Below are positions 7,114-38,738 of a stretch of DNA of 64,000 nucleotides, piece after piece; position 1 is the stretch's first letter; each line of letters opens with the position of its first letter. The DNA comes from Eubacteriales bacterium (GTDB taxonomy: Bacteria > Bacillota > Clostridia > Oscillospirales > CAG-272). The stretch is taken from NCBI GenBank assembly GCA_045638685.1, contig JAZUBT010000014.1, positions 2,147 through 66,146 on the forward strand. Reading direction: 5' to 3'. The notes below the pieces were generated by a model. That model searched no databases. It saw nothing but the letters and a program-made list of their open reading frames with translations, and was not told the origin of the DNA. A program made the position numbers and the translations under genes.

Positions 7114-7149
7114 GTTCTTTCCCTTTCCTTATTGAAAATTATTTATTTT

Positions 7150-7178
7150 ATTATACAATAAACAGCCTTGTTTGTCAA
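7150..7178 (-). promoter_or_regulatory. Sigma-A-type promoter for fhs
   Basis: On the minus strand, TTGACA (7173-7178), 17 nt, TATAAT (7150-7155). Confidence 0.75.
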
Positions 7179-7192
7179 GTAATTTATCTGTT

Positions 7193-9001: not shown

Positions 9002-9047
9002 AAGCTATTTTCCTTTCTGAATATTTATTTCTGAATATTTATTTAAG

Positions 9048-9242
9048 CTATTCGGTTACCTTAAACCAATGGAGATGCCTGTGCGTGCTACTTAGCGCGA
9101 CGGCGTTTAACGAGCTATCCGTTACCGTTATTTGAGTACTTCCATCATTCGGATCGGATTCAAGCGATTTTTCGCTTCCGCAGGAGGATAATATTATTAT
9201 AAAAAACAACAACCTGGCAAGCTTTCTTTTTTAAAAAAACAT
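9048..9242 (-). pseudogene. Possible small lipoprotein ORF with an in-frame TAA at codon 4
   Basis: ATG TTT TTT TAA is followed in the same frame by KRKLARLLFFIIILSSCGSEKSLESDPNDG...FKVTE*. That is a lipoprotein-like signal peptide with a lipobox. The RBS is weak (AGAGGA). It could instead start at an internal TTG. Confidence 0.3.
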
Positions 9243-9292
9243 ATTCGTTCCTCTTTTAAATGCTTATTTTAATTGCCGGGGTTATAACCGCA

Positions 9293-11152: not shown

Positions 11153-11168
11153 ATCTTCTCCCTTGACT

Positions 11169-13274: not shown

Positions 13275-13309
13275 ATAAACTCTCCGTTTCATAAACGTAT
13301 TAATCGGTA

Positions 13310-14785: not shown

Positions 14786-14849
14786 GGGAACCTCCAACTT
14801 AAAATATAGTATAACATTATTTATTTGTATAAGTATTAGTATCAAAAAC

Positions 14850-14878
14850 AGTATAGCACCTTTTCCTCTTTTTGTCAA
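14850..14878 (-). promoter_or_regulatory. Sigma-A-type promoter for the paralog 4-3-2-(1) LRR operon
   Basis: On the minus strand, CGCGCGTA-TTGACA (14873-14878), 17 nt, TGcTATACT (-10 at 14850-14855, extended -10). Confidence 0.75.
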
Positions 14879-14891
14879 TACGCGCGGAAAA

Positions 14892-14933
14892 TAAAAAAAG
14901 CTCTCTTGAACGCAGTATGTCAAAAGAGCTTTT
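14892..14933 (-). terminator. Intrinsic terminator after LRR paralog 5
   Basis: On the minus strand, AAAGCTCTTTTGA-catactgcgt-TCAAGAGAGCTTT followed by TTTTTTTATTTT. Confidence 0.8.
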
Positions 14934-14993
14934 ATCTGTTTTTTCAGGCTTCTAAACGGGCGCAACTACTTTTCGTATTCAAGAATTGTCCGT

Positions 14994-17069
14994 TTAATCA
15001 GCCGATTGGTTATACTTAATTTTGTATCTTTCTTGATTAAAGTTTTGCAGGTTGTACTGATAATCCCAACAGCTTTCTTTATAAATCATAATCCACTGCT
15101 GCTTACTGCCCGAGAACTTAATCGTTTTCAGACTGTCGCAGTCATATAAAGCATATTCTCCGATGCGTGAGACACTGCTTCCGATAAGAATATCGGTAAG
15201 AGCCTTACATTCGTAAAACGCGCTCTCTTTTATATCCGTTACGCCGTTTCCTATTTTAACGCTTTTAAGTCCGTCGCAATTAGAAAACGATGATCCTCCA
15301 AGCGACGTTACGCTGTCGGGTATAACCACGCTTGTAAGTCCGTCGCAGCCGAAAAACGCAGCGCCTCCTATATCCGTAAGGCTATTCGGAAAGATGATTT
15401 CTGTAAGCGCAGCGTTATTTTTAAAGGCATTGGAAGCTATAAAAGTCGTGCCATCCTTTACCGTATAGCTGCCGCTAACGGTTGCAGCGGCTTCCATAAG
15501 ATATTTTCCCATATACAGCACTCCGTTTTCCCAGTTAGCCGCGTTACCGTAATACTCCGTTCCGTAAAATGCCTCGGAGCCGATATATTCTATTCCTTCG
15601 CCCAGCGTAATGCTCGTAATACCTGCACAGTTCTTAAATGCACCGTCTTCAATGCTTTTCACTGTTCCCGGAATAGTTATGCCCGTAATACTGTCGCATG
15701 CCGTAAACGCGCGGGAGCCTATGGTGTTTACATTTTTGCCGAAGCTTACGCTTTTAATATTAGCGCGATAATCGTATGTAATTCCACCGCTCATAAATAT
15801 CATACTGAATATTGACGACGGAACAATCTTTACGCTGTCTCCAAAGGTTACGGATATTCCGTCTGCTGCCTTACCCGCGTTAGCGAATATTGCGTTAAAC
15901 GTAAGCGACGCACATTTTACGGCGTTGAAGTTTATCGAGATAAGCGCTGTACAGTTTGCAAACGCGTACTCCTCTATTTTAATAACTCCGCTCGGTACGG
16001 TTATTGACCTTACCACCGTATTGTCGGCATTTAAACCGTTACCTTTTATTTCGGTAACAGACGCTCCGAGATACGTTTCCGGAATATTTAGCGACTTAAC
16101 GTTTATTTTATCGTCAAGAAAAGTAAATGTACACGTTGCGCCGTTTTGCGTAAAGAACTGTCCGCAGCCAAGAATAACCTCGGCGGTCTCCGGCTTCCAC
16201 GTATCGTTCCAACCGCTCGGAACGGCTTCGCTGACGCACCATATAACCGCGTCTGGAGATATCGAAAAGGCGTCCTTGCCGATATACGTAACGGTTGACG
16301 GAATGACGATGCTGTCAAGCTTCGTGCAGCCTTTGAAGGCTGACTCGCCTATTTTTTCAATTCCGTTTGGAATAATAACGTCATTAATATAGCTGACGTC
16401 AAAAAAGGCGTTATTGGCTATTTCTTTTACAGGAACGTCTTTATAGGTAGCGGGAATCCTGATTTTGTCGCCGGTTTCTTTGCCGACACCTGTTACGGTG
16501 TAATAGCTTCCATCGGTCGAAAGCTGATATTCAAGCCTGCTTTCCGGCACAAGGCTTTCAAGCACGCTTACCCTTCCCTTTGTTTCGGAATATCCGTTCA
16601 TTCTTACGGCTATGTTAACGACGCCCTCTGTCTTTTTTGTAACCGAAACTATAAATCTGATGCGCTCTTCTTTCTTTTCAACGTCGTAAAGCCTTACCCT
16701 TGCGGTTATCTTATCTTTTATTACGGAATAATCTGACGTCGGAAAATCCTCCACGTTGAAGTCAAAATCATCTCCGTATTGAGAAGAAAAATCAATAGAT
16801 ACGGTTGCTATCGCGCCTTCGTTTGAGCTATCTATATTTGACAAAGCAAAATCAATAACCACGTAGCTTTTTTCGTCAATCGCTGTTTCTATTTTATCCT
16901 TTATTTTTCCGTCATGCTCTCCGCTAAAAAAATCAGCCTCGCTAAGATAACCGAATGAGGTTTTAACGTCCATATACTCATCCTTGCCACAGCCGGAAGC
17001 GGTAAAAACAGCCGCAACGGTTAGCAGAAAAAATATAAGATATTTCAGCGTACTTTTTACAGTTTCCAT
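14994..17069 (-). CDS. BspA-type leucine-rich-repeat surface lipoprotein, paralog 5 of 5
   Basis: The start METVKSTLKYL at 17069 has a GGAGG RBS. Lipobox VFTASGCG, shared N-terminal module (FGYLSEADFFSGEHDGKIKDKIE...IRFIVSV), LRR units throughout. Confidence 0.85.
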   Translation of the reverse strand: METVKSTLKYLIFFLLTVAAVFTASGCGKDEYMDVKTSFGYLSEADFFSGEHDGKIKDKIETAIDEKSYVVIDFALSNIDSSNEGAIATVSIDFSSQYGDDFDFNVEDFPTSDYSVIKDKITARVRLYDVEKKEERIRFIVSVTKKTEGVVNIAVRMNGYSETKGRVSVLESLVPESRLEYQLSTDGSYYTVTGVGKETGDKIRIPATYKDVPVKEIANNAFFDVSYINDVIIPNGIEKIGESAFKGCTKLDSIVIPSTVTYIGKDAFSISPDAVIWCVSEAVPSGWNDTWKPETAEVILGCGQFFTQNGATCTFTFLDDKINVKSLNIPETYLGASVTEIKGNGLNADNTVVRSITVPSGVIKIEEYAFANCTALISINFNAVKCASLTFNAIFANAGKAADGISVTFGDSVKIVPSSIFSMIFMSGGITYDYRANIKSVSFGKNVNTIGSRAFTACDSITGITIPGTVKSIEDGAFKNCAGITSITLGEGIEYIGSEAFYGTEYYGNAANWENGVLYMGKYLMEAAATVSGSYTVKDGTTFIASNAFKNNAALTEIIFPNSLTDIGGAAFFGCDGLTSVVIPDSVTSLGGSSFSNCDGLKSVKIGNGVTDIKESAFYECKALTDILIGSSVSRIGEYALYDCDSLKTIKFSGSKQQWIMIYKESCWDYQYNLQNFNQERYKIKYNQSAD

Positions 17070-17134
17070 AGGAGACCTCCACCCTAAAACATAACATAAG
17101 ATTGTATGTTCATACAAAATAAAACGTTAAAAAC

Positions 17135-17163
17135 AGTATAGCACCTTTTCCTTTTTTTGTCAA
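17135..17163 (-). promoter_or_regulatory. Sigma-A-type promoter for LRR paralog 5
   Basis: On the minus strand, CGCGCGTA-TTGACA (17158-17163), 17 nt, TGcTATACT (17135-17140). It is part of an 89-bp cassette nearly identical to 14844-14933. Confidence 0.75.
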
Positions 17164-17175
17164 TACGCGCGGAAA

Positions 17176-17217
17176 ATAAAAAAGCTCTCTTGAACGTAGT
17201 ATGTCAAAAGAGCTTTT
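17176..17217 (-). terminator. Intrinsic terminator after the aminopeptidase gene
   Basis: Same hairpin as 14892-14933 with one loop substitution, followed by a T-run on the minus strand. Confidence 0.8.
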
Positions 17218-17229
17218 TCTTTTTTTAAC

Positions 17230-18618
17230 TTACTTAATAAATGCCTTAAATGCCTCGTAGGTGGAATAAAGATCTGCCTTGGAAACAACCTCGTACGGCG
17301 CGTGCATTGATATTACCGGTACACCAAGGTCAACGGTATCAATGTTAAGGTTTGCTATATACATCGCGACCGTTCCGCCGCCGCCGATATCCACCTTACC
17401 AAGCTCAGACGTCTGCCACTGCACTCCGTTTTCCGCGAATATTTTTCTGACGTATCCAACGAACTCCGCTGAGGCGTCGCTTGTGCCCGACTTTCCTCTC
17501 GCCCCCGTATATTTGGACATCGTCGTACCGCAGGAAATCATAGCGCTGTTACGCTTTTCATATACGTCGGCAAAGTTGGGATCAAACGCCGCATTGACGT
17601 CTGCCGAGAGGCATTTCGATGCTGCTCTTACCGCTATGGGAGAGTAACCGAGGCTTACCGATATTTCGGTTATAAGGTCAAGCAGAAGCATAGACTGCAT
17701 ACCTGTATTTCCGTTGCTTCCCGTCTCCTCTTTATCGGCAAGAATACCAAAAACAGTGCTGTCGCTGTCGCATTCAATTACCGCGCGCAGAAGCGGGTAT
17801 GCGCAAACTCTGTCGTCGTGTCCGTAGGCGCCGATAAGCGCTCTGTCAAAGCCTATATCTCTCGCGTTAAACGCAGGGACGCAGGAAAGCTCCGCGCTTA
17901 TGAAATCCTCCTCGGTTATGCCGTATTTTTCGTTTAAGATATTTAAAACGTTCAGCTTTACCGAGCCGTCAGCGTCCCCGTCCTTAAGGGGCATTCCGCC
18001 AACGAGAATGTTGAGGCTTTCTCCCGCTATCGCCGTTCCGAGGGGCTTCTGGTTCTGCTCTGCCGCAAGGTGCGGAAGCAGGTCATTTATATAAAACACG
18101 GGATCGGACTGCTCGTCTCCTATTCTTATCTTAAGCTCACTTCCGTCCTTTTTAACTACAACTCCGTGAAGGGAAAGCGGCATCGCCATCCACTGATATT
18201 TTCTTATACCGCCGTAGTAATGTGTTTTAAAGAATGCCATTCCGCCGTCCTCATAAAGCGGAACCTGCTTTAAATCTATACGTGGAGAATCTATGTGCGC
18301 GGCGAGAATACGTATTCCGTCGGTATCAAGAGGACGAGAACCGATTTTAAAGACAAAAAGGCTCTTTCCCCTATTATTGTAATATTTTTTGTCTCCAACC
18401 TTAAGCTTCTCTCCGAGACGGTACTCTGTAAAGCCCTTTGCCTTGGCAAGCTCTATAGCAAAATCGGTGGCTTCTCTCTCGGTTTTCGCCTCGTCAAGGA
18501 ACGCCATATAGTCATCGGAAAAATCAAAAATGTTATTTATTTTTTCCGTATCGGCGTTTTCAAATATATTTTTCTTTTTCATTTGCAGTTTATCTGCAAG
18601 CTTAACTGCTTCACTCAT
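17230..18618 (-). CDS. M18-family aminopeptidase
   Basis: AAHIDSPRIDLKQ and GHDDRVCAY motifs, with a C-terminal SMHAPYE. The 462-aa length is typical of M18 (aspartyl/'aminopeptidase 1') enzymes. Confidence 0.85.
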   Translation of the reverse strand: MSEAVKLADKLQMKKKNIFENADTEKINNIFDFSDDYMAFLDEAKTEREATDFAIELAKAKGFTEYRLGEKLKVGDKKYYNNRGKSLFVFKIGSRPLDTDGIRILAAHIDSPRIDLKQVPLYEDGGMAFFKTHYYGGIRKYQWMAMPLSLHGVVVKKDGSELKIRIGDEQSDPVFYINDLLPHLAAEQNQKPLGTAIAGESLNILVGGMPLKDGDADGSVKLNVLNILNEKYGITEEDFISAELSCVPAFNARDIGFDRALIGAYGHDDRVCAYPLLRAVIECDSDSTVFGILADKEETGSNGNTGMQSMLLLDLITEISVSLGYSPIAVRAASKCLSADVNAAFDPNFADVYEKRNSAMISCGTTMSKYTGARGKSGTSDASAEFVGYVRKIFAENGVQWQTSELGKVDIGGGGTVAMYIANLNIDTVDLGVPVISMHAPYEVVSKADLYSTYEAFKAFIK

Positions 18619-18767
18619 AGATTATTCCTCTCATTTCTTTTATAAAATAAATATTTACCGGGAGCTCCAAATTATACTTGTCAAATAGGCAAAACGGCGG
18701 TTAAGAACCGTCATTTGCGGTTACCGTTCAATCGGCAGTTAACCGCTCTACGTATATTACATTAATT

Positions 18768-18796
18768 ATTATACAGTATCTCATACACTGTGTCAA
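18768..18796 (-). promoter_or_regulatory. Sigma-A-type promoter for the aminopeptidase gene, giving a leader of about 150 nt
   Basis: On the minus strand, TTGACA (18791-18796), 17 nt, TATAAT (18768-18773). Confidence 0.65.
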
Positions 18797-18845
18797 TAGA
18801 TTTCAGCTAATATTTACCGCTTTTTGCCGTTAAACACGAAAAAAC

Positions 18846-18874
18846 TTGACAACGGAGAAATTTAATTGTATAAT
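18846..18874 (+). promoter_or_regulatory. Sigma-A-type promoter for the M16 peptidase gene
   Basis: TTGACA (18846-18851), 17 nt, TATAAT (18869-18874). The leader contains the hairpin AAAACCGA...TCGGTTTT. Confidence 0.7.
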
Positions 18875-18953
18875 TAAGAAAACGCAGATTTTCATCATAA
18901 AACCGATTCTTTAAAAGCGGTCGGTTTTATAATTTATCCGAAAGGTCTTTTTA

Positions 18954-20219
18954 ATGGAAAAAACTTTTTACACCAAAAACGGCACCCCCGTTCACAGCTA
19001 CAAAAACACGAATATTTCGTCCTTTGCCATTTCGCTATTTTTACGCTGCGGCCCTGTGTACGAGAGTGAAAACGAAAGCGGATTTGCCCACTTTTTCGAG
19101 CACATCGTTTTTCGCAATATAAACGCTATAATGGACGGAAAGCTCTACGAAACACTTGACGCGAGCGGTCTTTACTTCAACGCCGCCACCTATGTTAACT
19201 ACGTCGAATTTTCTATAAGCGGCGCAAAGGAGCATTTTGAGGACGCCGCCAAAATAATCTCTCTCGTTCTCTCTCCGTTTGTTCTTTCGGCGGGGGAAAT
19301 AGCCACCGAGAAAAAGCGGATAAAAGCAGAAATACGCGAGGACAGCGAAAGCTCTCTTGACCGTTTTTCCGATAAAGCAGTATATGGCGGAACGCCTCTT
19401 GCAAGACCGATAACGGGAAAGTGCGGCGACGTCGAGCGTTTCGGACTTAAAATGCTCCGCATAAACAGAAAACGTTTTCTTACCAAGGAAAATATCTTCT
19501 TCTACGTTGGCGGAAGCTTTCAGGAAGCGAGCCTTGATTTTCTCACCTCGCTTATTGAAAAGCAGGAAATTTACTCCGGCCCCGCATTTACAAACATCGC
19601 ACCCGTACCCGCGAGTTTCGGTAAAAGAGGCTGCTCCGTGGCGGTTAAAAACGCAGCGTCCTGCTCGGTAAAGCTGTCGTTTGATATTAAAAACGGAGAT
19701 TACTCACTCCCCGAGCTTTTTTGTCTCTCCGACTGCCTTTTTGCTGGCGAAAGCTGTCCTATGTACCGAGAGCTATCCGAGAACACGGGACTGATTTACA
19801 GCTACGACGAGGCTCTACTCTGCTTTGAAAATATTTCGTTTTTAAGTGTCTCCTACGAGGTACGCGCAGACAAGCTTATGCGTAGCATTGAAACGGTAAT
19901 AAAGATGCTTAAAAAGGCGAAGGCTGACGCGGGCAGACGACTTAAGCTCATCACCCCCGCTTACACCGACAACGCCTATCTTATGCTTGACAGCGCCGAA
20001 ACCATTTCCTCCGATTTTGGGTATTTTAACCACATTTTAGGTTGCAAATACTACTCGGTGAGCGATCGATTTTCTGCCTTTTCCTCCCTTTCCGAGGAAA
20101 GAATAACCGCCCTTGCCGACGAGGTGTTTACGCCGGATAATCTTGTGATTTCAGTTAAGGGAAACAAAAAGAAAATTGACGTTACGGAGATAAAGAGGAT
20201 AGTGAAAGAAAATTTATAA
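18954..20219 (+). CDS. M16 (pitrilysin/insulinase) family zinc peptidase
   Basis: Inverted zinc motif HxxEH (FAHFFEHIVF) near the N-terminus. The 421-aa size fits a two-domain M16 protein. Confidence 0.8.
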   Translation: MEKTFYTKNGTPVHSYKNTNISSFAISLFLRCGPVYESENESGFAHFFEHIVFRNINAIMDGKLYETLDASGLYFNAATYVNYVEFSISGAKEHFEDAAKIISLVLSPFVLSAGEIATEKKRIKAEIREDSESSLDRFSDKAVYGGTPLARPITGKCGDVERFGLKMLRINRKRFLTKENIFFYVGGSFQEASLDFLTSLIEKQEIYSGPAFTNIAPVPASFGKRGCSVAVKNAASCSVKLSFDIKNGDYSLPELFCLSDCLFAGESCPMYRELSENTGLIYSYDEALLCFENISFLSVSYEVRADKLMRSIETVIKMLKKAKADAGRRLKLITPAYTDNAYLMLDSAETISSDFGYFNHILGCKYYSVSDRFSAFSSLSEERITALADEVFTPDNLVISVKGNKKKIDVTEIKRIVKENL

Positions 20220-20222
20220 GAG

Positions 20223-20255
20223 AAAAAAGCCTTCCCGATTTGGGAAGGCTTTTTA
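20223..20255. terminator. Bidirectional intrinsic terminator between the M16 peptidase gene (+) and manA (-)
   Basis: AAGCCTTCCC-gattt-GGGAAGGCTT, flanked by an A-run and a T-run. Confidence 0.85.
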
Positions 20256-20261
20256 AATTAA

Positions 20262-21206
20262 TTAAAGCGTTGATTTAACAACGTGCATATTGCCGCGGAA
20301 AGTGATTTCGCCCGCACCCGCAAAGGCGAAAACGGTGCTTCCCTTTGTAACGTTTATCTCCTCGTCGCTTGAAATTATCGCGCCTGCGCCCTCGGTAACG
20401 GTGAACGCCGCAAAGCTCTTTTCCGTAACGTCGGTTTTCTCCTCGCCGTGGACGTCGATAACAGAAACGTTAAAGAACGGGCAGGAAACCATCACCTTTT
20501 CGCTACCATTCTGCACACCCTTTTCGTAAAACTCGGTCTGTACGTTAAGGTTAGACGCTATAATTCCCTTTTCTATATGAAGTTCTCTTTCATTTCCGTT
20601 TGCATCCTTACGCTTGTAGTCATAAAGACGGTAAGTGGTGTCGGACGTCTGCTGAATCTCGCATATCGTAATACCGGCGCCTATTGCGTGAATGGTACCC
20701 GCTTTAATAAAGAAGGTGTCGCCCGTCTTAACGGGAACCTTGTTAAGGTAATCGGTTATGGTGCCGTCAAGAATTGCCTCGCGGAACCTCTCGCCGCTTA
20801 ATTTCTCCTTTACGCCATAGTAAAGATACGCGTCCTTTTCCGCCTCGCAGATTATCCACATTTCGGTTTTACCGCCGTCCGCATTAAGCTCTTTAGCGTT
20901 TTCGTCGCTCGGGTGGACCTGTATTGAAAGCGGCTGCGCGGCATCTATAAGCTTAATGAGTATAGGTAATTTATCATTCCCGTCTGCCGCTGTTCCGAGA
21001 ATCTCCTTTCCCTCGGCGGCAATAACCTCATTAATAGTTTTTCCGTCATATTTACCACCGTCAGCGCGACTCTCCTTGCCCTCGTATCCTGAAAGCTCCC
21101 ACGCCTCGGCAATATCCTTAAACGCGGTTTTTCCGTATTTATCGTAAAGATTTGTACCTCCCCATATCGCCTTATGGCAGTATGGCTTTAATTTTACAAG
21201 CTTCAT
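20262..21206 (-). CDS. manA: Mannose-6-phosphate isomerase, class I
   Basis: LSIQVHPSDE and GKTEMWII metal-binding motifs of type I PMI, with GTIHAIG. 314 aa. Confidence 0.85.
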   Translation of the reverse strand: MKLVKLKPYCHKAIWGGTNLYDKYGKTAFKDIAEAWELSGYEGKESRADGGKYDGKTINEVIAAEGKEILGTAADGNDKLPILIKLIDAAQPLSIQVHPSDENAKELNADGGKTEMWIICEAEKDAYLYYGVKEKLSGERFREAILDGTITDYLNKVPVKTGDTFFIKAGTIHAIGAGITICEIQQTSDTTYRLYDYKRKDANGNERELHIEKGIIASNLNVQTEFYEKGVQNGSEKVMVSCPFFNVSVIDVHGEEKTDVTEKSFAAFTVTEGAGAIISSDEEINVTKGSTVFAFAGAGEITFRGNMHVVKSTL

Positions 21207-21235
21207 CCTTGATTTTCTCCTTTGTATTTCTTAAG

Positions 21236-21802
21236 TTATGTTAATCCGTAGTAGTCAAGCAGTCCGTTATATATTCCCCTTGCGTAAAGCGCAGGATTAT
21301 CGTTCATAAACGCCGCCTCGCCGGGGTTAGTTATAAAACCGAGCTCAATAAGTACTGCGGGCATATTGGTTTTTCTTAAAACGTAAAGCGACGGTCTTAC
21401 AAAAACGCCTCTGTTAGGATACCCCGTAGCATCGGTGAGATTTTCAAGAATATCCTCCGCAAGCGCCTCTGCCGGACTGCTTCTGCTGAAAATGTAAGCC
21501 TCACTTCCCGTTGCCGACGTTATATCCGAGGCGTTTACGTGAATGGACAGAAACGCGTCCGCGCCATAGTTATTGGCGGCTGTCGTTCTGATATTAAGGC
21601 TCTCCGCATTTGACGTTCCGAGAACCTCCGACGGACTGCCGCGCGAAAGAAGGACGTCAAAATTTCCGTTTTGTCGGAGCAGATCGGCAAGAGCCACGCC
21701 GACCGCGTAAGTAATATCCTGCTCGCGAAGTCCGTTTCCCTCGGCGCCCGCATTAGGATTTCGTGGGTTATGTCCCTGATCAATAAAAATCTTGATAGCC
21801 AT
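21236..21802 (-). CDS. N-acetylmuramoyl-L-alanine amidase (Amidase_3 family)
   Basis: IFIDQGHN...GAEG...E (zinc ligands), DAFLSIHVNA, PAVLIELGFITN. No signal peptide is visible. Confidence 0.85.
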   Translation of the reverse strand: MAIKIFIDQGHNPRNPNAGAEGNGLREQDITYAVGVALADLLRQNGNFDVLLSRGSPSEVLGTSNAESLNIRTTAANNYGADAFLSIHVNASDITSATGSEAYIFSRSSPAEALAEDILENLTDATGYPNRGVFVRPSLYVLRKTNMPAVLIELGFITNPGEAAFMNDNPALYARGIYNGLLDYYGLT

Positions 21803-21935
21803 AGCTTTCTCCTCTAAGAAATGTTTTGCCGTTTTAACGGCGTTCGTTACATTATATTCTTAAAAAGGGAGTTATGCCACGGCTGTCTCGACATTTTTTA
21901 GTGTTTTTAGGTCTAAAACGGATTTTTAAACCGTC

Positions 21936-23234
21936 TTATTCCGGAGATTTTTCTCCGCATTCGGGGCAGAATTTAAACGAAGCTTTTGACTTATATCCGC
22001 ATTTACATATAAACTCATCTGCCGGCTTCTTGCTTCCGCACTCCGGACAGAATTTTCCGGTATTTACCGATCCACAGGCGCATTTCCACCCTCCTTCGGG
22101 CATCTGCACCGGCTTTTTAGCTCCGCACTGATAGCAGAACTTTCCTTTATTTCCCGCTCCGCATTCACATTCCCATACGGAATTGCTCTCTTCCGCCTTT
22201 TTAGCTGCTTCTCTTTCGGCATTTTCCTTTTCGTTAAGCGCCGCGGCGGTGTTAAGAAGTGCTCCCTGCGACTGGGCGTTATTTCCCATAGCGTTGCCCA
22301 TCATTCCGAGTCCCATAAATCCTGTCATAGCGCCCGCTGAGTTTTCCGCCGCCCTTTGCATCGCCTGCATCTGAGCGTAGGCAAGGCCTCCAGCCATCGC
22401 ATTAGGATTTGAATGCATAACGTTGGTATCAAACTCCTCTATACGCTTACGGCTCTTTTCGTCGGGCGTAACCTTGACTATTGCTACGGAAACGACGTCG
22501 AGACCGCGTTTTACGCCCCACTCCTCGTCGAGAGTTTCGGACATATATTTCGCTATTTCTCTCTGCTTCATCGGAATCTGACTAAACTTTATTCCTTCCG
22601 CGGAAAGCATACCGAGAGAGGTGTCAAGAGCGGTCATAAACTCGTCCTTGCACATATCCATAAGCGTATCCTTGGTATAGACGTCGGAAACCGCTCCCGC
22701 GACCGACGAGAAGAACACGATAGGATCCTTTATACGGAATGAAAACTGTCCGAAATATCTGATGTAAAGGGCGGTTCTGTAATAAGGATCGTCGTACACC
22801 ATAGGAGAGGTTGTACCGAACTTATTATCCATTATTTCCTTTACGTTGACGTAGTAAACTCTCTGAACCTTTGCCTTGTCTCCGCCAAAGGTAAAGCGTT
22901 CTCCAACCTTTTTAAAGGAATCAACGATACCGTTCCAAAGTCCGCCGCAGAAAATTGACGGCTCGCTCGAAGCGTCCCAGATAAATCTTCCCGGCTCCGC
23001 GCAAAACTCAACAATCTTTCCGTCCTCAACGATTATAGCTGCCTGACCTTCGGCAACCGCGATAGCCGAGCCGTTTGAAATAATATCCTCTTTTCCCTTA
23101 TTATTTCCCTTTGTCTGCTTTTTTCCTTTAACTATAAGCTGATCGCCTGTCATAGAATCAGCCCAGAAGTACTCCTTCCACTGGTCGGCAAGAACGCTTC
23201 CCGCCGCGCCAAGCGCTGCTCTGATAAGTCCCAT
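21936..23234 (-). CDS. SPFH/band-7-like protein with three C-terminal zinc-ribbon repeats (YdjI / COG4260-like)
   Basis: The N-terminus MGLIRAALGAAGSVLADQWKEYF is typical of the YdjI-like family as I remember it. The C-terminus carries WECECGAGNKGKFCYQCG, WKCACGSVNTGKFCPECG and FICKCGYKSKASFKFCPECG. Confidence 0.7.
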   Translation of the reverse strand: MGLIRAALGAAGSVLADQWKEYFWADSMTGDQLIVKGKKQTKGNNKGKEDIISNGSAIAVAEGQAAIIVEDGKIVEFCAEPGRFIWDASSEPSIFCGGLWNGIVDSFKKVGERFTFGGDKAKVQRVYYVNVKEIMDNKFGTTSPMVYDDPYYRTALYIRYFGQFSFRIKDPIVFFSSVAGAVSDVYTKDTLMDMCKDEFMTALDTSLGMLSAEGIKFSQIPMKQREIAKYMSETLDEEWGVKRGLDVVSVAIVKVTPDEKSRKRIEEFDTNVMHSNPNAMAGGLAYAQMQAMQRAAENSAGAMTGFMGLGMMGNAMGNNAQSQGALLNTAAALNEKENAEREAAKKAEESNSVWECECGAGNKGKFCYQCGAKKPVQMPEGGWKCACGSVNTGKFCPECGSKKPADEFICKCGYKSKASFKFCPECGEKSPE

Positions 23235-23467: not shown

Positions 23468-24463
23468 TTACTCTTTACTACTCTTTTCAAAGCCTTGCAT
23501 AGCTCTTAAAATCTGCTCTTTATATTCATTAACGACGCTTTCCGGAGAAAGAATTTGAAGCGCTCCGTCAAAGCCGAAAACCCAGGAGAAAAATCTTACG
23601 CTTATTTCTATTGGCGCATAAAACTCAAAGCAGTCTCCCTGCTCGGTAACGTTCAGAGACATACCGAAACGGTCAAACATTGCCCCCGCAAAACGGTTAT
23701 CGCAGCGAAAATGCACCATTTCCTCTCTACCCTTAAACATTTCAAAAACGTTTCCGTAGTATTTTGCGAGAGATATTTTTTCAAATTCCTCCCTTCCACG
23801 TCTTGCCTCTCCGGTAAGCTTAATTTTCTCCATTCTGTCAACGCGGTAATGTCTTATTCCGCGGAAATCGTGATCAAAGGCTATAAGATAGTAGTTATCC
23901 TCTCTCCACATAAGAGACCAAGGGCTTACACGGTAGCTTTCTCCGTTTCTTCTTTCCACCTTCTTTTTCGATGGAGTTAGCTCGGTATATTTAAAGGTAA
24001 TCGAGCTGTTTTCGGATATTCCTTTATGTATATCGTCTATCAGATACAGAACACCGCTCTGCTTTTCTTCTCTGTCGTAAACGTAAACGCTTCGCGAGAG
24101 CTCGCTTTCCTCATATCGGCTGGAAAGCTTTGACAGCTTTTTAATAAGAGACGTACACTGCTTTTTGGATATAAAACGGCAGGACTGAACGGCGTCAACA
24201 AGCATTTTCAGCTCCGCAAGCTCAAAGTCTCTGCTTAATGTACGAAAGCCGCCGCTTCTTCCCTCCACCTGCATAACGTCGATAAGCCCCGCGTCATCAA
24301 GCGCGTATATATCGCTGTAAACGCTTTTTCTTTCGGCTGAAATCCCATACTTTTCGAGGAGCTCTATTATTTTTTTAGTTGTAACCGAGTGATTTTCGTC
24401 CGTTTCTCTTAAAAGAATATCTCTGACGTAAAGCGCTTTAAGTCTTTGGTTTTCCTTTTTCAT
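23468..24463 (-). CDS. WYL-domain transcriptional regulator (N-terminal wHTH, central WYL, C-terminal extension)
   Basis: HTH region ITTKKIIELLEKYGISAERKSVYSDIYAL. WYL core YRVSPWSLMWREDNYYLIAFD. 331 aa. Confidence 0.8.
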   Translation of the reverse strand: MKKENQRLKALYVRDILLRETDENHSVTTKKIIELLEKYGISAERKSVYSDIYALDDAGLIDVMQVEGRSGGFRTLSRDFELAELKMLVDAVQSCRFISKKQCTSLIKKLSKLSSRYEESELSRSVYVYDREEKQSGVLYLIDDIHKGISENSSITFKYTELTPSKKKVERRNGESYRVSPWSLMWREDNYYLIAFDHDFRGIRHYRVDRMEKIKLTGEARRGREEFEKISLAKYYGNVFEMFKGREEMVHFRCDNRFAGAMFDRFGMSLNVTEQGDCFEFYAPIEISVRFFSWVFGFDGALQILSPESVVNEYKEQILRAMQGFEKSSKE

Positions 24464-33045: not shown

Positions 33046-33081
33046 TAAAAAGCCTTCTCCTGCAGGAGAAGGCTTTTTTGT
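33046..33081. terminator. Bidirectional intrinsic terminator between pfp (+) and the TIR gene (-)
   Basis: Perfect palindrome AAGCCTTCTCCTGCAGGAGAAGGCTT, flanked by an A-run and a T-run. Confidence 0.85.
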
Positions 33082-33085
33082 TTGT

Positions 33086-35590
33086 TTATTTGATTTCTAT
33101 CCACATTGCGGGACGAACTGCCGTACTGCTTACGTTTTTTGCGCTGCCGTGAACTCCGTTACCGCTTTCGCTGATATTACCGGTATCTCCGACGAAGGTT
33201 GCAGAATCCTGTCTGTGTCCCGGTGTACGCAGCCACCACATGCCATAACCTCCGTTGCTCTTAAAATAGCTTGCTCCTTGCGTTGCCGCAAACCACGTAG
33301 GCTTACATTTCCTTTCCTTTTCCGAGCTGAAATACGTGTTTGCCTCTGAAACGCTTAATAAAAATATGTAATCCTGCGTTGCGTTTCCGGGAGAGGTGTC
33401 GTAATCCGGGTTGCTGTCTGCCGGAACGTCAGAAAGTACAATCAGCTCCTTGTCCTCGGCGGAAAACGCCGCATTAAAGAAACCGTTATTAAGCCACCTG
33501 CGGAGAGAACACGTTTCCCACGTTACGTCAGTGTAGGTTTCGTTGTATTTTTTACAGTCAAGGCCGTATTTGCTGATAACGAGCGCTTTTCCGTCCTTTA
33601 CGTCAAGAACGAGCCACTCTATCGGCTCTTCGTCGTACGACCACTGATCGTACTTACCAAGCTTAATATAGCCTCCGACCTCGACAACTCCGAGTCTGTC
33701 GTAGGCCTCTTGTCCGTATTGCGCTATAAACAAATTTTTGCGCGCTAAAACGCTTTCCTCCATTTTCGCGACGCTGTCTTTATATTCACCCAGTTTCTCG
33801 AATTTCGCTATCGCCTCGGTGTATCTGAGTTCGCTCATGAGCGCTATCGCATCGTTATACATCACACTCGGAAGGATAACTGTATTAAGAACAATAACAA
33901 ACGCAATAACAAAGGCTACGGCTGACGTTGCGATAAAAGCAATTTTTATTTTGCGTTTCTTTCTTTTTTCATTTTCTATGCGTCGCTCTTCCGCCTGTCT
34001 TTCAAGCTTTATTTTCTCCGCTTTTTCTCTTTCCAGCTTCTCTTTAAGGCTCGCCGCCTCCTTGATACGCTCTGCCTCGCGCGCCGCCTCCGCTGCGCGT
34101 TCCCTTTCTATGCGTTCATCCTCCGCCTTTTTCTGAAGTCGCTGTATTTTTTCCTCGCAAGCGCGAGCGCGGTCCCTCGCATCTTTATAATCAGCAATAG
34201 AATTAAACACTTCTACGGCTTTTTTAAGCTTTGAAATATTATACGTCTTATAATCGTCCATCGCTTTAAGGTAAACTGACTCACGGTTTGCGGCTTCATT
34301 ACGCTCGTTTATCTCTTTAATGTAACCGTCAAGCTCGGCGTTAAGCGCCCCGTCGCCAAAACGGGCTAATTTTTTATAATTTCCGCTGCCATCAAACGGC
34401 TTTGCGCAGTGCTTTAAATCCTCTCGCTTTTTAACGTTAAGCTCCGCCATAAGCTTTCCGAGATACGCGCTCGGATTTTTGGGCTCCTGATTTAAAACCT
34501 GCTCACAAAACTCGTCTGCTTTTTCAAAATCTCCGTCCTCAAGGAACATAAATGCGCGTTCAATCAGCGCGGCGGTGTTAACGCCGCCCACAATCGGTGC
34601 GCCGCCCGGCTCTCTTATCACGGTGGTTTCCTTTATAACCGGCTCCTTGATTACGGTTTCCTTTATCTCCCTTACAACAGTTTCCTGCTTTGGCTTAAAG
34701 CTCTCCATAACCTTTTTGATTCCGCGAACAAGGTCGTTTGCAAAACCGATTTTTCCCATATCCTGCGCCTGAAGATGCGCAAATTCGTCGGGAAGATCGT
34801 ACGCGTCCATATCGCGATAGCAAGGAATAAGAAGCTTTTTTCTGTCCTTTTTGATAATTTTCAGGTATCTTGACCACTCGTTTTTAACCCAGATAGCGTT
34901 GAAGTATTCGGGCTTGGTTCCTACAACAAGCATAACCTTTGCGGAGTTAAGAGCGGCGAAAATTATTGGCTCGTAGTCGCGTCCGAGCTTGCCCTCAAGC
35001 GTTATAGCGGCATAAAAAACCTTAAACCCTGCGTCTGTCAGCTCGTAATAAATATCGTTAGCAATAACGCTGTCGCGGGTTTTACCTCCGGTTTCGTCCG
35101 TTTCCTTATAACAGATAAAAACGTCGTAGCTCTCCTCTTTTTGCGCGAGTGCTAAAATATCCTTCTGTATCCTGTCAATCTCCCTTGCCTGTTCTTCGTA
35201 AAGTGTGCGGCGCTCGTAGTCTGCGTGTTCGATAGCGGATTTAAAATCTCCGTCTGCTATTATTGAATCAAATGAAGCTCTATGGCAGGTGGGAACCATT
35301 TTACCGCTTGACTTATCGTCAACGTACTCTATACCGTATTTACACAGCACAAGTCCATAGTAAGCCTCCGATTCGTTTGGCGCGGTTTCCACTATCTTTT
35401 CATAAACAGCCTCCGCCTTGTCAAACTCACATCTGCGACGAAGAGCGTTTGCCCTGTTAAATAGGTTACGAAGGCTATCGTCCTCCGCCTTTGGAAGCGT
35501 CTGCTTCGTGCGACAGTATTTACACTCGGCAATCGCAGCTCCTTCAGTTATATCAAGATCGCCGCCGCAAAATTTACAGTTAAGTAGCAT
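33086..35590 (-). CDS. Single-pass membrane protein: N-terminal zinc ribbon, TIR domain, coiled coil, TM helix, C-terminal DUF6273-like domain
   Basis: CKFCGG...CKYC (aa 5-27). TIR signature YDVFICYKETD...GFKVFYAA...SAKVMLVVGT...WVKNEW (aa ~154-285). E/R/K-rich coiled coil (aa 470-545). KRKKRK followed by IKIAFIATSAVAFVIAFVIVLNTVILPSV (aa 548-575). EWLVLD...RRWLN...WWLRTPG...VRPAMWI (aa ~640-834). Confidence 0.8.
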   Translation of the reverse strand: MLLNCKFCGGDLDITEGAAIAECKYCRTKQTLPKAEDDSLRNLFNRANALRRRCEFDKAEAVYEKIVETAPNESEAYYGLVLCKYGIEYVDDKSSGKMVPTCHRASFDSIIADGDFKSAIEHADYERRTLYEEQAREIDRIQKDILALAQKEESYDVFICYKETDETGGKTRDSVIANDIYYELTDAGFKVFYAAITLEGKLGRDYEPIIFAALNSAKVMLVVGTKPEYFNAIWVKNEWSRYLKIIKKDRKKLLIPCYRDMDAYDLPDEFAHLQAQDMGKIGFANDLVRGIKKVMESFKPKQETVVREIKETVIKEPVIKETTVIREPGGAPIVGGVNTAALIERAFMFLEDGDFEKADEFCEQVLNQEPKNPSAYLGKLMAELNVKKREDLKHCAKPFDGSGNYKKLARFGDGALNAELDGYIKEINERNEAANRESVYLKAMDDYKTYNISKLKKAVEVFNSIADYKDARDRARACEEKIQRLQKKAEDERIERERAAEAAREAERIKEAASLKEKLEREKAEKIKLERQAEERRIENEKRKKRKIKIAFIATSAVAFVIAFVIVLNTVILPSVMYNDAIALMSELRYTEAIAKFEKLGEYKDSVAKMEESVLARKNLFIAQYGQEAYDRLGVVEVGGYIKLGKYDQWSYDEEPIEWLVLDVKDGKALVISKYGLDCKKYNETYTDVTWETCSLRRWLNNGFFNAAFSAEDKELIVLSDVPADSNPDYDTSPGNATQDYIFLLSVSEANTYFSSEKERKCKPTWFAATQGASYFKSNGGYGMWWLRTPGHRQDSATFVGDTGNISESGNGVHGSAKNVSSTAVRPAMWIEIK

Positions 35591-35642
35591 TTTTTATTCC
35601 TTCTTTTTTATTTTTGACAAAAATAAATTCTTTGTCAAATTT

Positions 35643-35671
35643 AGTATAACACTTTTTTCATATTTTGTCAA
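35643..35671 (-). promoter_or_regulatory. Sigma-A-type promoter for the TIR-domain gene
   Basis: On the minus strand, CGCGCGTA-TTGACA (35666-35671), 17 nt, TGtTATACT (35643-35648). The same CGCGCGTA upstream element occurs at the two LRR promoters. Confidence 0.7.
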
Positions 35672-35803: not shown

Positions 35804-36979
35804 TTATACTTCGGGAATGTTAATTTCGATCTCCTTGCCAAGACGAGCGGAATCTGCGATTCCGGAAAGGATAGCCTGGTTGTAGATGATCTGGCTGGTG
35901 GGTACCGGTATAGGAGCGGTTCCCTTACATGCGTCGAGGAAGGAACGAATCTTCTTGTCGAAGAGCGATGCGGATTTATCCTCGGGGATAATCGGTATCT
36001 CGGTGCAAACCTGGCTGCCCGCAACCTCGTGATAAATCTTCATAGGACCGCCAACTGTTCCGTTCCAGCAGTCGGTGCTGGGGATTCTAAGTCCACCCTT
36101 AGTACCGAGAATGATGGTATCACCGGGGGTGTCGATGTTCATAGCCCATGCTATTCTGAAGTCGAGGATAATGTCGCCCTCAAGTCTTATGAACGCAGCT
36201 GCGAAGTCGTCAACTCCGAAGAGCTTTGCATATTCCTCTCTCTTATCGGCACGGTAGCCGCTGTAATTACTGGACTTACCGAAGAAATCGCTCTTATATC
36301 CGGAAACGGTGAGCGGCTTCGGATAACCGATTGCGTTAAGTACCATATCGAGGGAGTAGCATCCGATGTCGGCAAGAGCGCCAAGTCCTGCGGTTCTGTC
36401 CTCGATAAAGGTGGTTCCGAAGGGGGTAGGAATACCGCGACGGCGTCCGCCACCCGTCTGAATGTAGTAGATTTTTCCGAGCTCGCCGCTTTCAACGATC
36501 TCCTTAATCTTCTGCATATTTGCGTCAAGACGCGGCTGGAAGCCTATGGAAATAACCTTTCCGGATTCCTTTTCAGCCTTCATTATCGCGATAGCCTCGT
36601 CAACGGTTACGCACATCGGCTTCTCAAGAAGAACGTGAATACCCGCATTAAGGGTGTCGATAGCGCAGTTTGCGTGCTGACGGTTATATGTACAAATGGA
36701 TACAGCGTCAAGCTTTAAGTTGTCGTTGTCCTCAAGCATTTCCTTGTGGGAAGCGTAATCGGTTTTAACGCCCTCAACTCCGAATTTCTTGAAGAAAGCC
36801 TCTGCCTTTCCGGGAACAATATCAGCACCCGCAACGATTTCAACGTCGGGCATCTTCTTATACGAGATGATGTGCTGCTCTGCGATCCAGCCGGTACCAA
36901 TGATACCTACGCGAAGCTTTTTCGAGGTGTCAATAGCCTTTTTTTCCTGATTTGCTGCATTAGGATCTAAATATGCCAT
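35804..36979 (-). CDS. Gfo/Idh/MocA-family NAD(P)-dependent oxidoreductase (paralog A)
   Basis: N-terminal Rossmann LRVGIIGTGWIA, an EKP motif (VLLEKPM), 391 aa. It is about 80% identical in protein sequence to the gene at 37273-38448. Confidence 0.85.
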   Translation of the reverse strand: MAYLDPNAANQEKKAIDTSKKLRVGIIGTGWIAEQHIISYKKMPDVEIVAGADIVPGKAEAFFKKFGVEGVKTDYASHKEMLEDNDNLKLDAVSICTYNRQHANCAIDTLNAGIHVLLEKPMCVTVDEAIAIMKAEKESGKVISIGFQPRLDANMQKIKEIVESGELGKIYYIQTGGGRRRGIPTPFGTTFIEDRTAGLGALADIGCYSLDMVLNAIGYPKPLTVSGYKSDFFGKSSNYSGYRADKREEYAKLFGVDDFAAAFIRLEGDIILDFRIAWAMNIDTPGDTIILGTKGGLRIPSTDCWNGTVGGPMKIYHEVAGSQVCTEIPIIPEDKSASLFDKKIRSFLDACKGTAPIPVPTSQIIYNQAILSGIADSARLGKEIEINIPEV

Positions 36980-37272: not shown

Positions 37273-38448
37273 CTATTTTATCTCCGGCACCTCTATCTCA
37301 ATCTCTCTGCCGAGACGAGCGGATTTTGCTATTCCGTCGATAATCGCTTGGTTGTAAATTATCTCGGACGTCGGTACGGGGACCGGCGCTTCTCCCTTAC
37401 ACGCGTCAAGGAATGAACGTATCTTTTTATCGAACAGAGAGTAGTTTTTGTCGGCAGGGATAATCGGTATCTCGGTACAGACCTGACTGCCCGCTACCTC
37501 GTGATAAATCTTCATAGGACCGCCAACCGTTCCGTTCCAGCAGTCGGTACTGGGGATACGGAGTCCTCCCTTTGTACCGAGAATTATAGTGTCTCCGGGG
37601 GTATCAATGTTCATAGCCCATGAAATTCTGAAATCAACGATTATACCGCCTTCAAGACGGATAAACGCCGCAGCAAAGTCGTCAACGCCAAATTTTCCCG
37701 CGTATTCCTCGCCCTTGCCCTTCGGGTAACCCGAATATTTTGGGTTTTTACCGAAAAAGTCGCTCTTGTATCCTGTTACAGTGAGGGGCTTCGGGTAACC
37801 GATGGCTTTAAGAACCATATCAAGCGAGTAACAGCCGATGTCGGCAAGCGCTCCGAGACCCGCGGTTTCGTCCTCAATAAAGCTGGTTCCTCTTGAAGCG
37901 GGAATACCGCGCCGGCGGCCGCCGCCCGTCTGAATGTAATAGATTTTTCCAAGCTCACCGCTTTCGACGATTTCCTTAATTTTCTGCATATTGGCGTCAA
38001 GACGCGGTTGGAAGCCTACCGAAAGAACCTTTCCGGTTTTCTTCTCTACACGCATCATTTCGATAGCCTCCTCCGTCGTAACGCTCATAGGCTTTTCGAG
38101 AAGAACGTGAAGCCCTGCGTTAAGCGAGTCTATCGTACAGTCCTTGTGCTGACGGTTATAGCTACAAACCGAAACGGCGTCAAGCTGTAAGCTTTTGTCC
38201 TCGAGCATCTCCTTATGCGACGGGTAATCGGTTTTAACGCCCTCTACTCCGTTTTCTTTGAAAAACGCCTCCGCCCTTCCCGGAACGAGGTCGGCGCCCG
38301 CCACTATTTCAACATCGGGCATTTTTTTGTAGGAAATCACGTGCTTTTGTGCGATTCCGCCGGTTCCTATTATACCTATGCGGAGCTTTTTAGACGCATC
38401 AACCGTCTTTTTTTCCTGATTTGCGGCGTTAGGATCAAGATATGCCAT
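37273..38448 (-). CDS. Gfo/Idh/MocA-family NAD(P)-dependent oxidoreductase (paralog B)
   Basis: LRIGIIGTGGIA, VLLEKPM, 391 aa. It shares identical 55-aa blocks with paralog A, but the DNA shows many synonymous differences. Confidence 0.85.
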   Translation of the reverse strand: MAYLDPNAANQEKKTVDASKKLRIGIIGTGGIAQKHVISYKKMPDVEIVAGADLVPGRAEAFFKENGVEGVKTDYPSHKEMLEDKSLQLDAVSVCSYNRQHKDCTIDSLNAGLHVLLEKPMSVTTEEAIEMMRVEKKTGKVLSVGFQPRLDANMQKIKEIVESGELGKIYYIQTGGGRRRGIPASRGTSFIEDETAGLGALADIGCYSLDMVLKAIGYPKPLTVTGYKSDFFGKNPKYSGYPKGKGEEYAGKFGVDDFAAAFIRLEGGIIVDFRISWAMNIDTPGDTIILGTKGGLRIPSTDCWNGTVGGPMKIYHEVAGSQVCTEIPIIPADKNYSLFDKKIRSFLDACKGEAPVPVPTSEIIYNQAIIDGIAKSARLGREIEIEVPEIK

Positions 38449-38540: not shown

Positions 38541-38738
38541 TTAATTCTGACGTCTTACGCTTTTATATTCGTCGTAGTAGCGGTAATAAGCGCAGTCGTT
38601 ATTCTGTCCCGAAAGAAAATCCACGGCGTCGTCCTCGTCGAGACTGACTGTACAGACGTATCCGTCCATATCGTCATCGTAGTCGTAATAGACACAGCTT
38701 TCGCAGTTTTTTACCTTATTTTTTTCTTTTTTCTCCAT
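38541..38738 (-). CDS. Small acidic Cys-containing protein (65 aa), function unknown
   Basis: CESCVYYDYDDDMDGYVCTVSLDEDD...CAYYRYYDEY, with an AGGAAAG RBS 8 nt upstream. It lies 92 nt upstream of paralog B on the same strand. Confidence 0.55.
   Translation of the reverse strand: MEKKEKNKVKNCESCVYYDYDDDMDGYVCTVSLDEDDAVDFLSGQNNDCAYYRYYDEYKSVRRQN

Follow-up and report, generated by a model that had tools for sequence, protein, structure and literature searches.

A stand-alone TIR-domain protein from a large, unnamed family of Clostridia membrane proteins with exchangeable C-terminal domains

The gene and its features

The window analysed here, 64,000 nucleotides from an Eubacteriales bacterium (assembly GCA_045638685.1, contig JAZUBT010000014.1), contains at 33086-35590 on the reverse strand a gene, referred to below as the TIR gene, whose product joins a zinc ribbon, TPR hairpins and a TIR domain to one transmembrane (TM) helix and a C-terminal domain of the DUF6273 type. 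We conclude that it is a stand-alone member of a very large, unnamed family of type-II single-pass membrane proteins of Clostridia. An earlier note on this DNA, made from its letters alone, had described an open reading frame (ORF) of 834 amino acids (aa) with five regions in order; that architecture was borne out, and every motif that it quoted was located in the protein: the CxxC pairs at aa 5-8 and 23-26, YDVFICYKETD at 155-165, GFKVFYAA at 188-195, SAKVMLVVGT at 216-225, WVKNEW at 234-239, KRKKRK at 542-547, EWLVLD at 658-663, RRWLN at 697-701, WWLRTPG at 785-791 and VRPAMWI at 825-831. The features of the gene are given below by their position in the window.

33086-35590, reverse strand: whole ORF, 834 aa and stop codon, for a type-II single-pass membrane protein whose family combines a zinc ribbon-TPR-TIR head, a TM helix and a variable ectodomain
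35643-35671, reverse strand: sigma-70-type promoter, TTGACA-17-TGtTATACT, hexamers kept in the syntenic ortholog locus L001
35598-35603, reverse strand: ribosome-binding site GAAGGA, 7 nt before the ATG
35513-35578, reverse strand: CxxC...CxxC zinc ribbon, aa 5-26, model strands E11-13, E20-23 and E29-31
35339-35479, reverse strand: TPR-type helical hairpins, aa 38-84, model helices 38-52, 56-69 and 74-84
35141-35338, reverse strand: beta-hairpin (YGIEYVDD...PTCHR) and long helix, aa 85-150, part of the constant head, no Pfam family
34703-35128, reverse strand: TIR domain, aa 155-296, from Pfam TIR_2, Foldseek and a low ratio of nonsynonymous to synonymous substitution (dN/dS)
34877-34879, reverse strand: codon of Glu238 in WVKNEW, by sequence alignment at the position of the catalytic Glu of NAD+-cleaving (NADase) TIR domains
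34154-34702, reverse strand: low-confidence linker and then a helical TPR-like region, aa 297-479, predicted local distance difference test (pLDDT) below 50 at aa 305-330
33950-34153, reverse strand: E/R/K-rich helix ending in KRKKRK, aa 480-547, 63% E/R/K
33866-33949, reverse strand: single TM helix, aa 548-575, the sole Kyte-Doolittle segment above 1.6
33671-33865, reverse strand: predicted extracellular juxtamembrane helices, aa 576-640 (helices 2-11, 17-36 and 38-44 of the aa 590-834 model)
33089-33670, reverse strand: predicted extracellular DUF6273 domain, aa 641-834, from Pfam and the model
33101-33238, reverse strand: WWLRTPG...VRPAMW, aa 785-830, equivalent to the variable repeat (VR) of a diversity-generating retroelement (DGR), hypervariable family-wide
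33047-33078, no strand: hairpin with a 14-bp stem and A and T runs on its flanks, between the stop codons of the convergent PFK and TIR genes

Because the TIR gene has its own promoter and ribosome-binding site, adjoins the intergenic hairpin and follows a gene with a separate terminator (35779-35750), it is very probably a single transcription unit. It had earlier been called monocistronic, with a promoter and a terminator of its own; all of these signals were found again, and the promoter is conserved in a related species. Judged by its sequence, the hairpin is likely a bidirectional terminator. Between the -10 box and the ribosome-binding site lies a perfect 9-bp inverted repeat, TTTGACAAA ... 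TTTGTCAAA (35613-35639, reverse strand), which has an operator-like look and, unlike the promoter hexamers, is not kept in the syntenic locus L001.

The cytoplasmic head

An AlphaFold2 model of aa 1-330, built with 57 homologs, had a pLDDT of 86.9 and a predicted template-modelling score (pTM) of 0.80, and in it the zinc ribbon, three TPR-type helices, the beta-hairpin, the long helix and the TIR domain are packed as one unit. The significant Foldseek matches of this model in the PDB were all TIR domains (plant L7 and RUN1, SPARTA TIR-APAZ, MyD88, TIR-STING and AbTir), with TM-scores of up to 0.76 when normalised to AbTir. Pfam TIR_2 (PF13676) matched aa 157-279 at E 4.3e-10, with 40.6 bits against a gathering cut-off of 28. 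The TIR fold, proposed beforehand for aa ~154-285 from motifs, is confirmed at the level of the predicted structure. The zinc ribbon, placed before near aa 5-27, is found in the two CxxC pairs, of which C8, C23 and C26 are invariant in 58 homologs and C5 is nearly so. Between the two domains, Pfam TPR_1 lies above threshold at aa 43-72 (E 1.7e-8), a feature absent from the earlier list, and the segment of aa 85-150 has a pLDDT above 85 and nine invariant residues (G86, I87, E88, Y89, V90, D92, P100, T101 and R104).

The Glu that had been assigned to the catalytic position was misnumbered as 237, which is Asn; it is Glu238, and its alignment with the catalytic position stands. This placement, in the alpha-C helix with its W-x-x-x-E motif, comes from sequence alignment alone. 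WVKNE was aligned with WPARE of Brucella TcpB/BtpA (E 0.016) and, in a profile of the TIR region whose best PDB sequence match was the TLR15/TLR2 TIR domain (E 2e-4), with WCQYE, in a helix that we take to be the one carrying the catalytic Glu of NADase TIR domains. Glu238 is invariant in the 58 homologs. From these alignments we infer that the TIR domain of the window protein may have NADase activity.

The membrane helix and the DUF6273 domain

For the region that follows the TIR domain, a TPR-like stretch and an E/R/K-rich coiled coil had been suggested. The E/R/K-rich helix is present at aa 480-547, and the TPR-like stretch is matched in Pfam below threshold only, near aa 341-378. With an identity of ~0.5, this helix is the part least conserved relative to the ortholog, and it is probably a cytoplasmic stalk. 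As described before, KRKKRK is followed at aa 548-575 by a single hydrophobic helix, and the protein has no other hydrophobic segment. Lys and Arg number nine in the 19 residues preceding the helix and one in the 19 residues following it, and in 58 single-TM members of the family the net charge falls from +2.8 ahead of the helix to -0.9 behind it. Because of this bias across the membrane in 58 members, a topology with the N-terminus inside and the C-terminus outside appears to be a trait of the family, and the arrangement proposed at the outset, with the TIR domain inside and the C-terminal domain outside, fits the positive-inside rule family-wide.

The recognition of the C-terminal domain as DUF6273 was borne out by Pfam (PF19789, aa 666-832, E 3.5e-28, profile positions 1-171 of 172) and by its fold. 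The model of aa 590-834 reached a pLDDT of 92.9, and its sole significant Foldseek match in the PDB was 9qa6, the IgA peptidase of Thomasclavelia ramosa (E 2.9e-7), the N-terminal domain of which is a DUF6273 domain. In BFVD, 14 phage proteins were matched at E<=1e-3, most of them bearing the annotation DUF6273 and one that of a receptor-binding protein. In the literature DUF6273 is described as a C-type-lectin-like domain and a common target of DGRs in phages of gut Firmicutes, with the VR at its C-terminal end (PMC10743442, PMC11792537). Since the domain is found elsewhere on secreted and phage surface proteins, a location outside the cell would fit for the window protein as well.

A constant head and exchanged ectodomains

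More than 120 proteins share the full architecture at E<1e-250. A search with aa 1-150 yielded 5,285 representatives of 50%-identity clusters at E<=1e-3 (2,277 at E<=1e-30); this module is always N-terminal in the matched proteins, and TIR motifs were present in 145 of the 150 top matches. Species-representative genomes hold at least 583 stretches of the family, and the hosts are mainly Oscillospirales (Acutalibacteraceae, Ruminococcus, Faecousia) and Lachnospiraceae. NCBI names the members only 'TIR domain-containing protein', and in the literature searched on DUF6273, TIR and SPFH-linked architectures we found no paper describing the family.

Identity among members was 58-91% over aa 1-330 versus 37-78% over aa 590-834. 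The motif WV[KRQ]NEW[SA]R, Glu included, was kept in 112 of 113 family genes of the loci that were fetched. Among 102 C-terminal regions we found DUF6273 domains (30), RCC1-type propellers (22) and BspA-type leucine-rich repeats (LRR; LRR_5 or LRR_8) in 11, as well as RHS, WG repeats and lipocalin-like domains, RHS and WG being limited to single members. The LRR, RCC1 and RHS domains are placed C-terminal of the TM helix, and tandem paralogs of one genome bear different ectodomains. LRR ectodomains are carried by paralogs from other genomes, at loci L006, L013 and L003. Pfam matches to CIDE-N within the RCC1 regions were probably spurious and were set aside. As some relatives hypermutate or swap the outer domain, a bacterial surface sensor is suggested.

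The closest relative, at locus L001, is syntenic with the window gene at ~80% DNA identity. Compared with this ortholog, the whole gene has a dN/dS of 0.12, with 0.037 in the TIR domain, 0.063 in the zinc ribbon-TPR part and 0.14 in DUF6273. We take these low values as a sign of purifying selection, strong on the head, by which the stand-alone copy is maintained. Another relative, at L088, also stands alone amid housekeeping genes.

Diversity-generating retroelements in relatives

At least two homologs with the architecture of the window protein are DGR targets. At L086, the family gene (protein P0093, 48% identical) is followed by Avd, bAvd, a template repeat (TR) and a reverse transcriptase (RT; RVT_1), in that order. 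The 127-nt alignment of the VR (10445-10571) with the TR (11511-11637) has 17 mismatches, of which 16 fall at TR adenines; the VR spans exactly the stretch WWLRSPG...VRPAL. At L041 (Clostridiales bacterium UBA1740), bAvd, RT and a TR of the same type are all intact; the VR itself (~5649-5746) is a run of N in the public record, which could be due to masking or to a failure of assembly over a hypervariable region. Two further loci, L084 and L085, hold a decayed VR/TR pair without RT.

The corresponding stretch of the window gene (33101-33238) is hypervariable across the family. Across 58 homologs including the window protein, column entropy was 3.07 bits at codons for which the L086 template has A at position 1 or 2, versus 0.54 bits at the interleaved codons (p=2e-8), with a mean of 0.98 bits over the rest of the DUF6273 domain. 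Within the stretch, dN/dS was 0.43 versus 0.14 in the rest of the domain.

We considered whether a DGR acts on the window gene and rejected this for the locus: within the 64 kb the last 315 nt have no TR (chance matches of 11-23 nt only), the gene as a whole is not repeated, and neither RT nor Avd occurs. A DGR outside the 64 kb might act in trans. The AAY footprint is too weak to support past mutagenesis by a DGR: only 10 of 13 AAY-type positions end in C or T, and AGA, GGA and AAA codons are present. The window gene is a non-diversified copy, the binding face of which still lies on the hypervariable positions of the family.

Partner genes at related loci

The 79 related loci contained 132 family genes, frequently in tandem. 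In what follows T denotes the TIR-family gene, B a Band_7_1 SPFH protein and C a small membrane protein. B, which carries zinc ribbons or SHOCT and matches Band_7_1 at E of about 1e-38 to 1e-41, was encoded on the same strand in 52 of the 79 loci by clustering and in 56 of 81 by tblastn. For C (~232 aa, 2-4 hydrophobic segments, no Pfam family), also on the same strand, the figures were 45 of 79 and 47 of 81. A SIR2_2 gene stands between T and B in L082/L083 and L064. Other cassettes are accompanied by DUF2971, integrases, relaxase or ParB genes.

The window gene lacks this same-strand T-B-C adjacency, and in the 64 kb there is neither a paralog of the TIR gene nor a homolog of C. Among the annotated neighbours (27-41 kb of the window) no ThsA-type effector gene was seen, and PADLOC gave no ThsB match at E<=1. 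The earlier statement that the gene has no partner thus holds within the window and fails for the family, given B in 56 of 81 loci, C in 47 of 81 and SIR2_2 at two loci.

The L082/L083 cluster adjoins a Tn7-like element. Its T-T-SIR2_2-B-C genes have Peptidase_M78 and DUF4411 on one side and Tn7-like TnsA/TnsB/TniB/TniQ on the other (5921-7632 and 16420-22457), and the cassette may be transposon cargo. A 61-aa ribbon-helix-helix gene stands ahead of the TIR-family arrays in 15 of 81 loci (for example L082 7803-7988 and L037 5897-6076) and may be a dedicated regulator.

A possible transmembrane sensor and the alternatives

Our preferred reading, to which we assign a probability of roughly 45%, sees the window protein as a transmembrane sensor of type II whose TIR domain gives a catalytic output. 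The ectodomain would bind an extracellular or cell-surface ligand, most likely a foreign surface structure, for instance a phage particle or receptor-binding protein, and binding would cluster the receptors so that their cytoplasmic TIR domains assemble. The assembled domains, by means of the invariant Glu238, might then cleave NAD+, leading to its depletion or to a signal derived from ADP-ribose. For relatives in cassettes, the SPFH protein and the small membrane protein could serve as a membrane scaffold or effector, with SIR2_2 as an occasional additional NAD-directed effector, while the window copy would work by itself or together with the products of genes elsewhere in the genome. Of the earlier suggestion of an envelope sensor coupled to a TIR NADase, the sensor part gains from the swapped and sometimes DGR-hypermutated ectodomain, and the NADase part still derives from aligned sequences. 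On a role in defence the evidence is mixed. Counted in favour are the targeting by DGRs, the swapping of ectodomains, SIR2_2 at two loci, the mobile-element contexts and the published precedent of DGR-diversified lectin-fold sensors coupled to TIR effectors (PMC10907252).

A much broader proposal, which we consider doubtful, is that the family is a functional prokaryotic counterpart of Toll-like receptors, namely a repertoire of transmembrane immune receptors whose extracellular lectin-fold, LRR or propeller domains would detect phage particles or other foreign surfaces before DNA entry, these domains being somatically hypermutated by a DGR in some lineages, with signalling by catalytic TIR assembly organised by an SPFH scaffold; the window copy would then be a germline-fixed member.

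Several observations weigh against the sensor with a catalytic output. A conserved Glu is required for NADase activity and is not sufficient for it, and about one third of the cluster representatives have no clear hydrophobic segment on a crude scale. The annotated neighbours of the window gene are all housekeeping genes (ArgJ, ArgG, AraC, PFK, two Gfo/Idh/MocA, thiamine transporter, RsmE, RluA). In PADLOC-DB v2 the window protein weakly and partially matches PDC-S66 (E 8.6e-5), and B and C gave nothing meaningful beyond a chance-level match (E 1.7e-4) between one C protein and a Type I specificity subunit. The immediate flanks of the 79 loci are heterogeneous, with 150 Pfam families of which the commonest, Phage_integrase, occurs in 5 of 120; the rate of PADLOC matches was ~15 of 120 flanking genes (an estimate from per-family counts), close to the ~9-10 of 89 for control genes at least 6 kb away. 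The association with defence islands that the earlier note had offered as a check was not found here, and around the relatives no clear enrichment was found. A tblastn search of 50,697 phage records and 72,556 plasmid records gave no match to the module, and IMG/VR contained only two loci. Finally, the head is very highly conserved from order to order, which would be uncommon among fast-evolving defence effectors and could point to a housekeeping partner instead. No known defence system was recognised, PADLOC giving only the weak PDC-S66 match for T and NCBIfam nothing meaningful, in agreement with the earlier judgement that this is not a recognisable known system.

Some of these points lend themselves to another explanation, in which T, B and C parallel YdjG, YdjI and YdjH of the Bacillus subtilis pspA-ydjGHI operon and form a module for membrane organisation or envelope stress, with the TIR domain used mainly for homotypic assembly or a local NAD-derived signal and the ectodomain binding the wall polymers of the cell itself. 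YdjG is a membrane protein with a zinc ribbon, and YdjI, an adaptor of the Band 7 type, recruits PspA to the membrane (bioRxiv 10.1101/2021.02.15.431232); B, with its zinc ribbons or SHOCT in 52-56 loci, and C, with its 2-4 hydrophobic segments, would correspond, and the housekeeping contexts of the window copy and L088, the very strong conservation of the head and the lack of phage and plasmid matches beyond the two IMG/VR loci are all as expected. We nevertheless hold this to be unlikely. Hypermutation by DGRs and wholesale exchange of the ectodomain are hard to square with an invariant self polymer, SIR2_2, DUF2971, integrases, the Tn7-like element and conjugation genes lie beside some cassettes, no PspA-like gene recurs among the neighbours, and the likeness of T to YdjG is one of gene and domain layout.

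The family might also consist of environmental receptors without an immune role, the ectodomains of different paralogs reading different cues (a dietary or host glycan, mucus, immunoglobulin, another bacterium) and the TIR domain making a second messenger or recruiting a regulator to control gene expression. The multi-paralog RsgI anti-sigma receptors of cellulolytic clostridia offer an analogy. Genomes of fibre-degrading Ruminococcus and Oscillospirales do contain tandem arrays with different binding domains, an IgA protease of a gut bacterium has DUF6273 as its N-terminal domain, some loci neighbour glycoside hydrolases, dockerin or carbohydrate-binding module (CBM) proteins or AraC regulators, the window gene itself has an AraC gene at a distance of 1.5 kb, and the 61-aa ribbon-helix-helix regulator precedes T arrays in 15 loci. 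However, the neighbours of T genes include no recurrent dedicated sigma factor, response regulator or nucleotide-binding receptor, we know of no TIR-based transcriptional signalling in bacteria, and the links to DGRs, SIR2_2 and mobile elements better suit conflict systems, so that we would give such receptors rather small odds.

The least credible of these accounts is that the window copy was separated from its B-C cassette and DGR and persists as an orphan, a surface protein with the passive role of an adhesin or decoy and a TIR head that no longer signals: the 64 kb do lack a B-C pair, RT, Avd, template repeat and T paralog, and the codons at the variable positions do give a weak AAY footprint, with AGA, GGA and AAA among them, but the ORF is intact with its own conserved promoter, ribosome-binding site and terminator, it is syntenic in a species ~20% diverged in DNA, the dN/dS of 0.037 for TIR and 0.063 for zinc ribbon-TPR argues for strong selection on the head, and stand-alone copies recur in other genomes such as L088.

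Comparison with known systems

The putative transmembrane sensor has its closest precedent in the conflict systems with DGR-diversified C-type-lectin 'antigen sensors', in which lectin-fold sensors with a C-terminal VR are coupled to effectors, TIR among them (Dore et al., PNAS 2024, PMC10907252; Kaur et al., eLife 2020, PMC7159879; Vallota-Eastman et al., 2020, PMC7517822). The homologs at L086 and L041 share this VR layout and are genuine targets of DGRs. Most of the systems described are cytoplasmic STAND-NTPase or MoxR/vWA ternary systems of Proteobacteria and cyanobacteria (PMC10907252, PMC7159879, PMC7517822), whereas the TIR family has a single polypeptide with one membrane span, no NTPase, a zinc ribbon-TPR-TIR head and SPFH and membrane partners, and belongs to gut Clostridia; the window copy is without a DGR. 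TIR-coupled sensors with variable or hypermutable binding domains are already known, and the TIR family would be a form of them built as a receptor that crosses the membrane once, in gut Clostridia.

With the NADase TIR proteins (Thoeris ThsB, AbTir, Brucella BtpA/TcpB, TIR-STING, SPARTA TIR-APAZ) the window protein has in common the TIR fold and the aligned, invariant Glu of W-x-x-x-E. It differs from them in having no ThsA, STING, SAVED, SLOG or Argonaute partner and in being membrane-anchored with a predicted extracellular domain. To our knowledge, those TIR proteins of bacteria that have been studied work within the cell, in most cases once infection is under way.

The earlier note had also seen a topology like that of Toll-like receptors. 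A binding ectodomain, one TM helix and a TIR domain in the cytoplasm are indeed shared with the metazoan receptors, and some paralogs have LRR ectodomains. In the window protein, however, the TIR domain is N-terminal and the protein therefore type II, with the orientation inverted, and DUF6273 takes the place of an LRR ectodomain; the LRRs found in paralogs, of the BspA type, are bacterial in kind. The likeness would be one of design, an analogy with no sign of common descent of the whole architecture. A survey of TIR systems in E. coli noted that transmembrane and LRR features of the Toll-like receptor type seem to be absent from bacterial TIR systems (PMC11350192).

The DUF6273 targets of phage DGRs and receptor-binding proteins ('tentaclins', Faecalibacterium prophages), as well as the T. 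ramosa IgA peptidase, share the Pfam domain and fold. Those proteins are virion-borne or secreted and have no TIR domain, whereas in the window protein the domain is the outer part of a TIR membrane protein. As in the PspA-YdjG-YdjH-YdjI system of Bacillus subtilis, the related loci pair a zinc-ribbon membrane protein with a Band 7-type SPFH protein and a further membrane protein. They do so without PspA, T adds a TIR domain and a large ectodomain, the likeness is by layout, and the window has only a divergent Band_7_1 gene 10 kb off.

The family comprises thousands of proteins of gut and rumen Clostridia in which a conserved cytoplasmic TIR domain is combined with exchangeable extracellular binding domains, some hypermutated by DGRs and some of the LRR type. 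If the TIR domain is catalytic and triggered from outside, these proteins would represent transmembrane sensing of an innate-immune type in bacteria and would provide a concrete cellular role for the abundant chromosomal DGRs and DUF6273 domains of gut Firmicutes. Because it is carried by a single gene or a three-gene cassette, the idea of sensing is directly testable.

Other genes in the window

The TIR gene is directly flanked by the PFK gene and a Gfo/Idh/MocA gene. Upstream of it, two Gfo/Idh/MocA paralogs lie in tandem (35804-36979 and 37273-38448, reverse strand). In L001 an additional gene of 720 aa (6292-8454) lies between the members of this pair; its product has an N-terminal hydrophobic segment and no TIR domain, and it clusters with the TIR family, presumably through its C-terminal part. 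A 65-aa ORF rich in Cys, Tyr and Asp (38541-38738, reverse strand) shows the highest conservation between the window and L001, at 89-90% DNA identity.

The divergent Band_7_1 SPFH protein (432 aa, 21936-23234, reverse strand), ~10 kb from the TIR gene and without a C partner, is ~40% identical over its C-terminal third to the B proteins of the TIR-family loci, and its ORF adjoins genes for a WYL-domain protein and an amidase (23468-24463 and 21236-21802, both on the reverse strand). Five large ORFs in tandem (602, 619, 707, 551 and 707 aa) occupy 7193-17117 on the reverse strand. Three of them (7193-9001, 9293-11152 and 11169-13292) gave weak tblastn matches (E ~1e-4) to C-like proteins of 438-450 aa at L049 and L058, the matched portion being the first ~125-315 residues, and the five ORFs may form an array of paralogous surface proteins.

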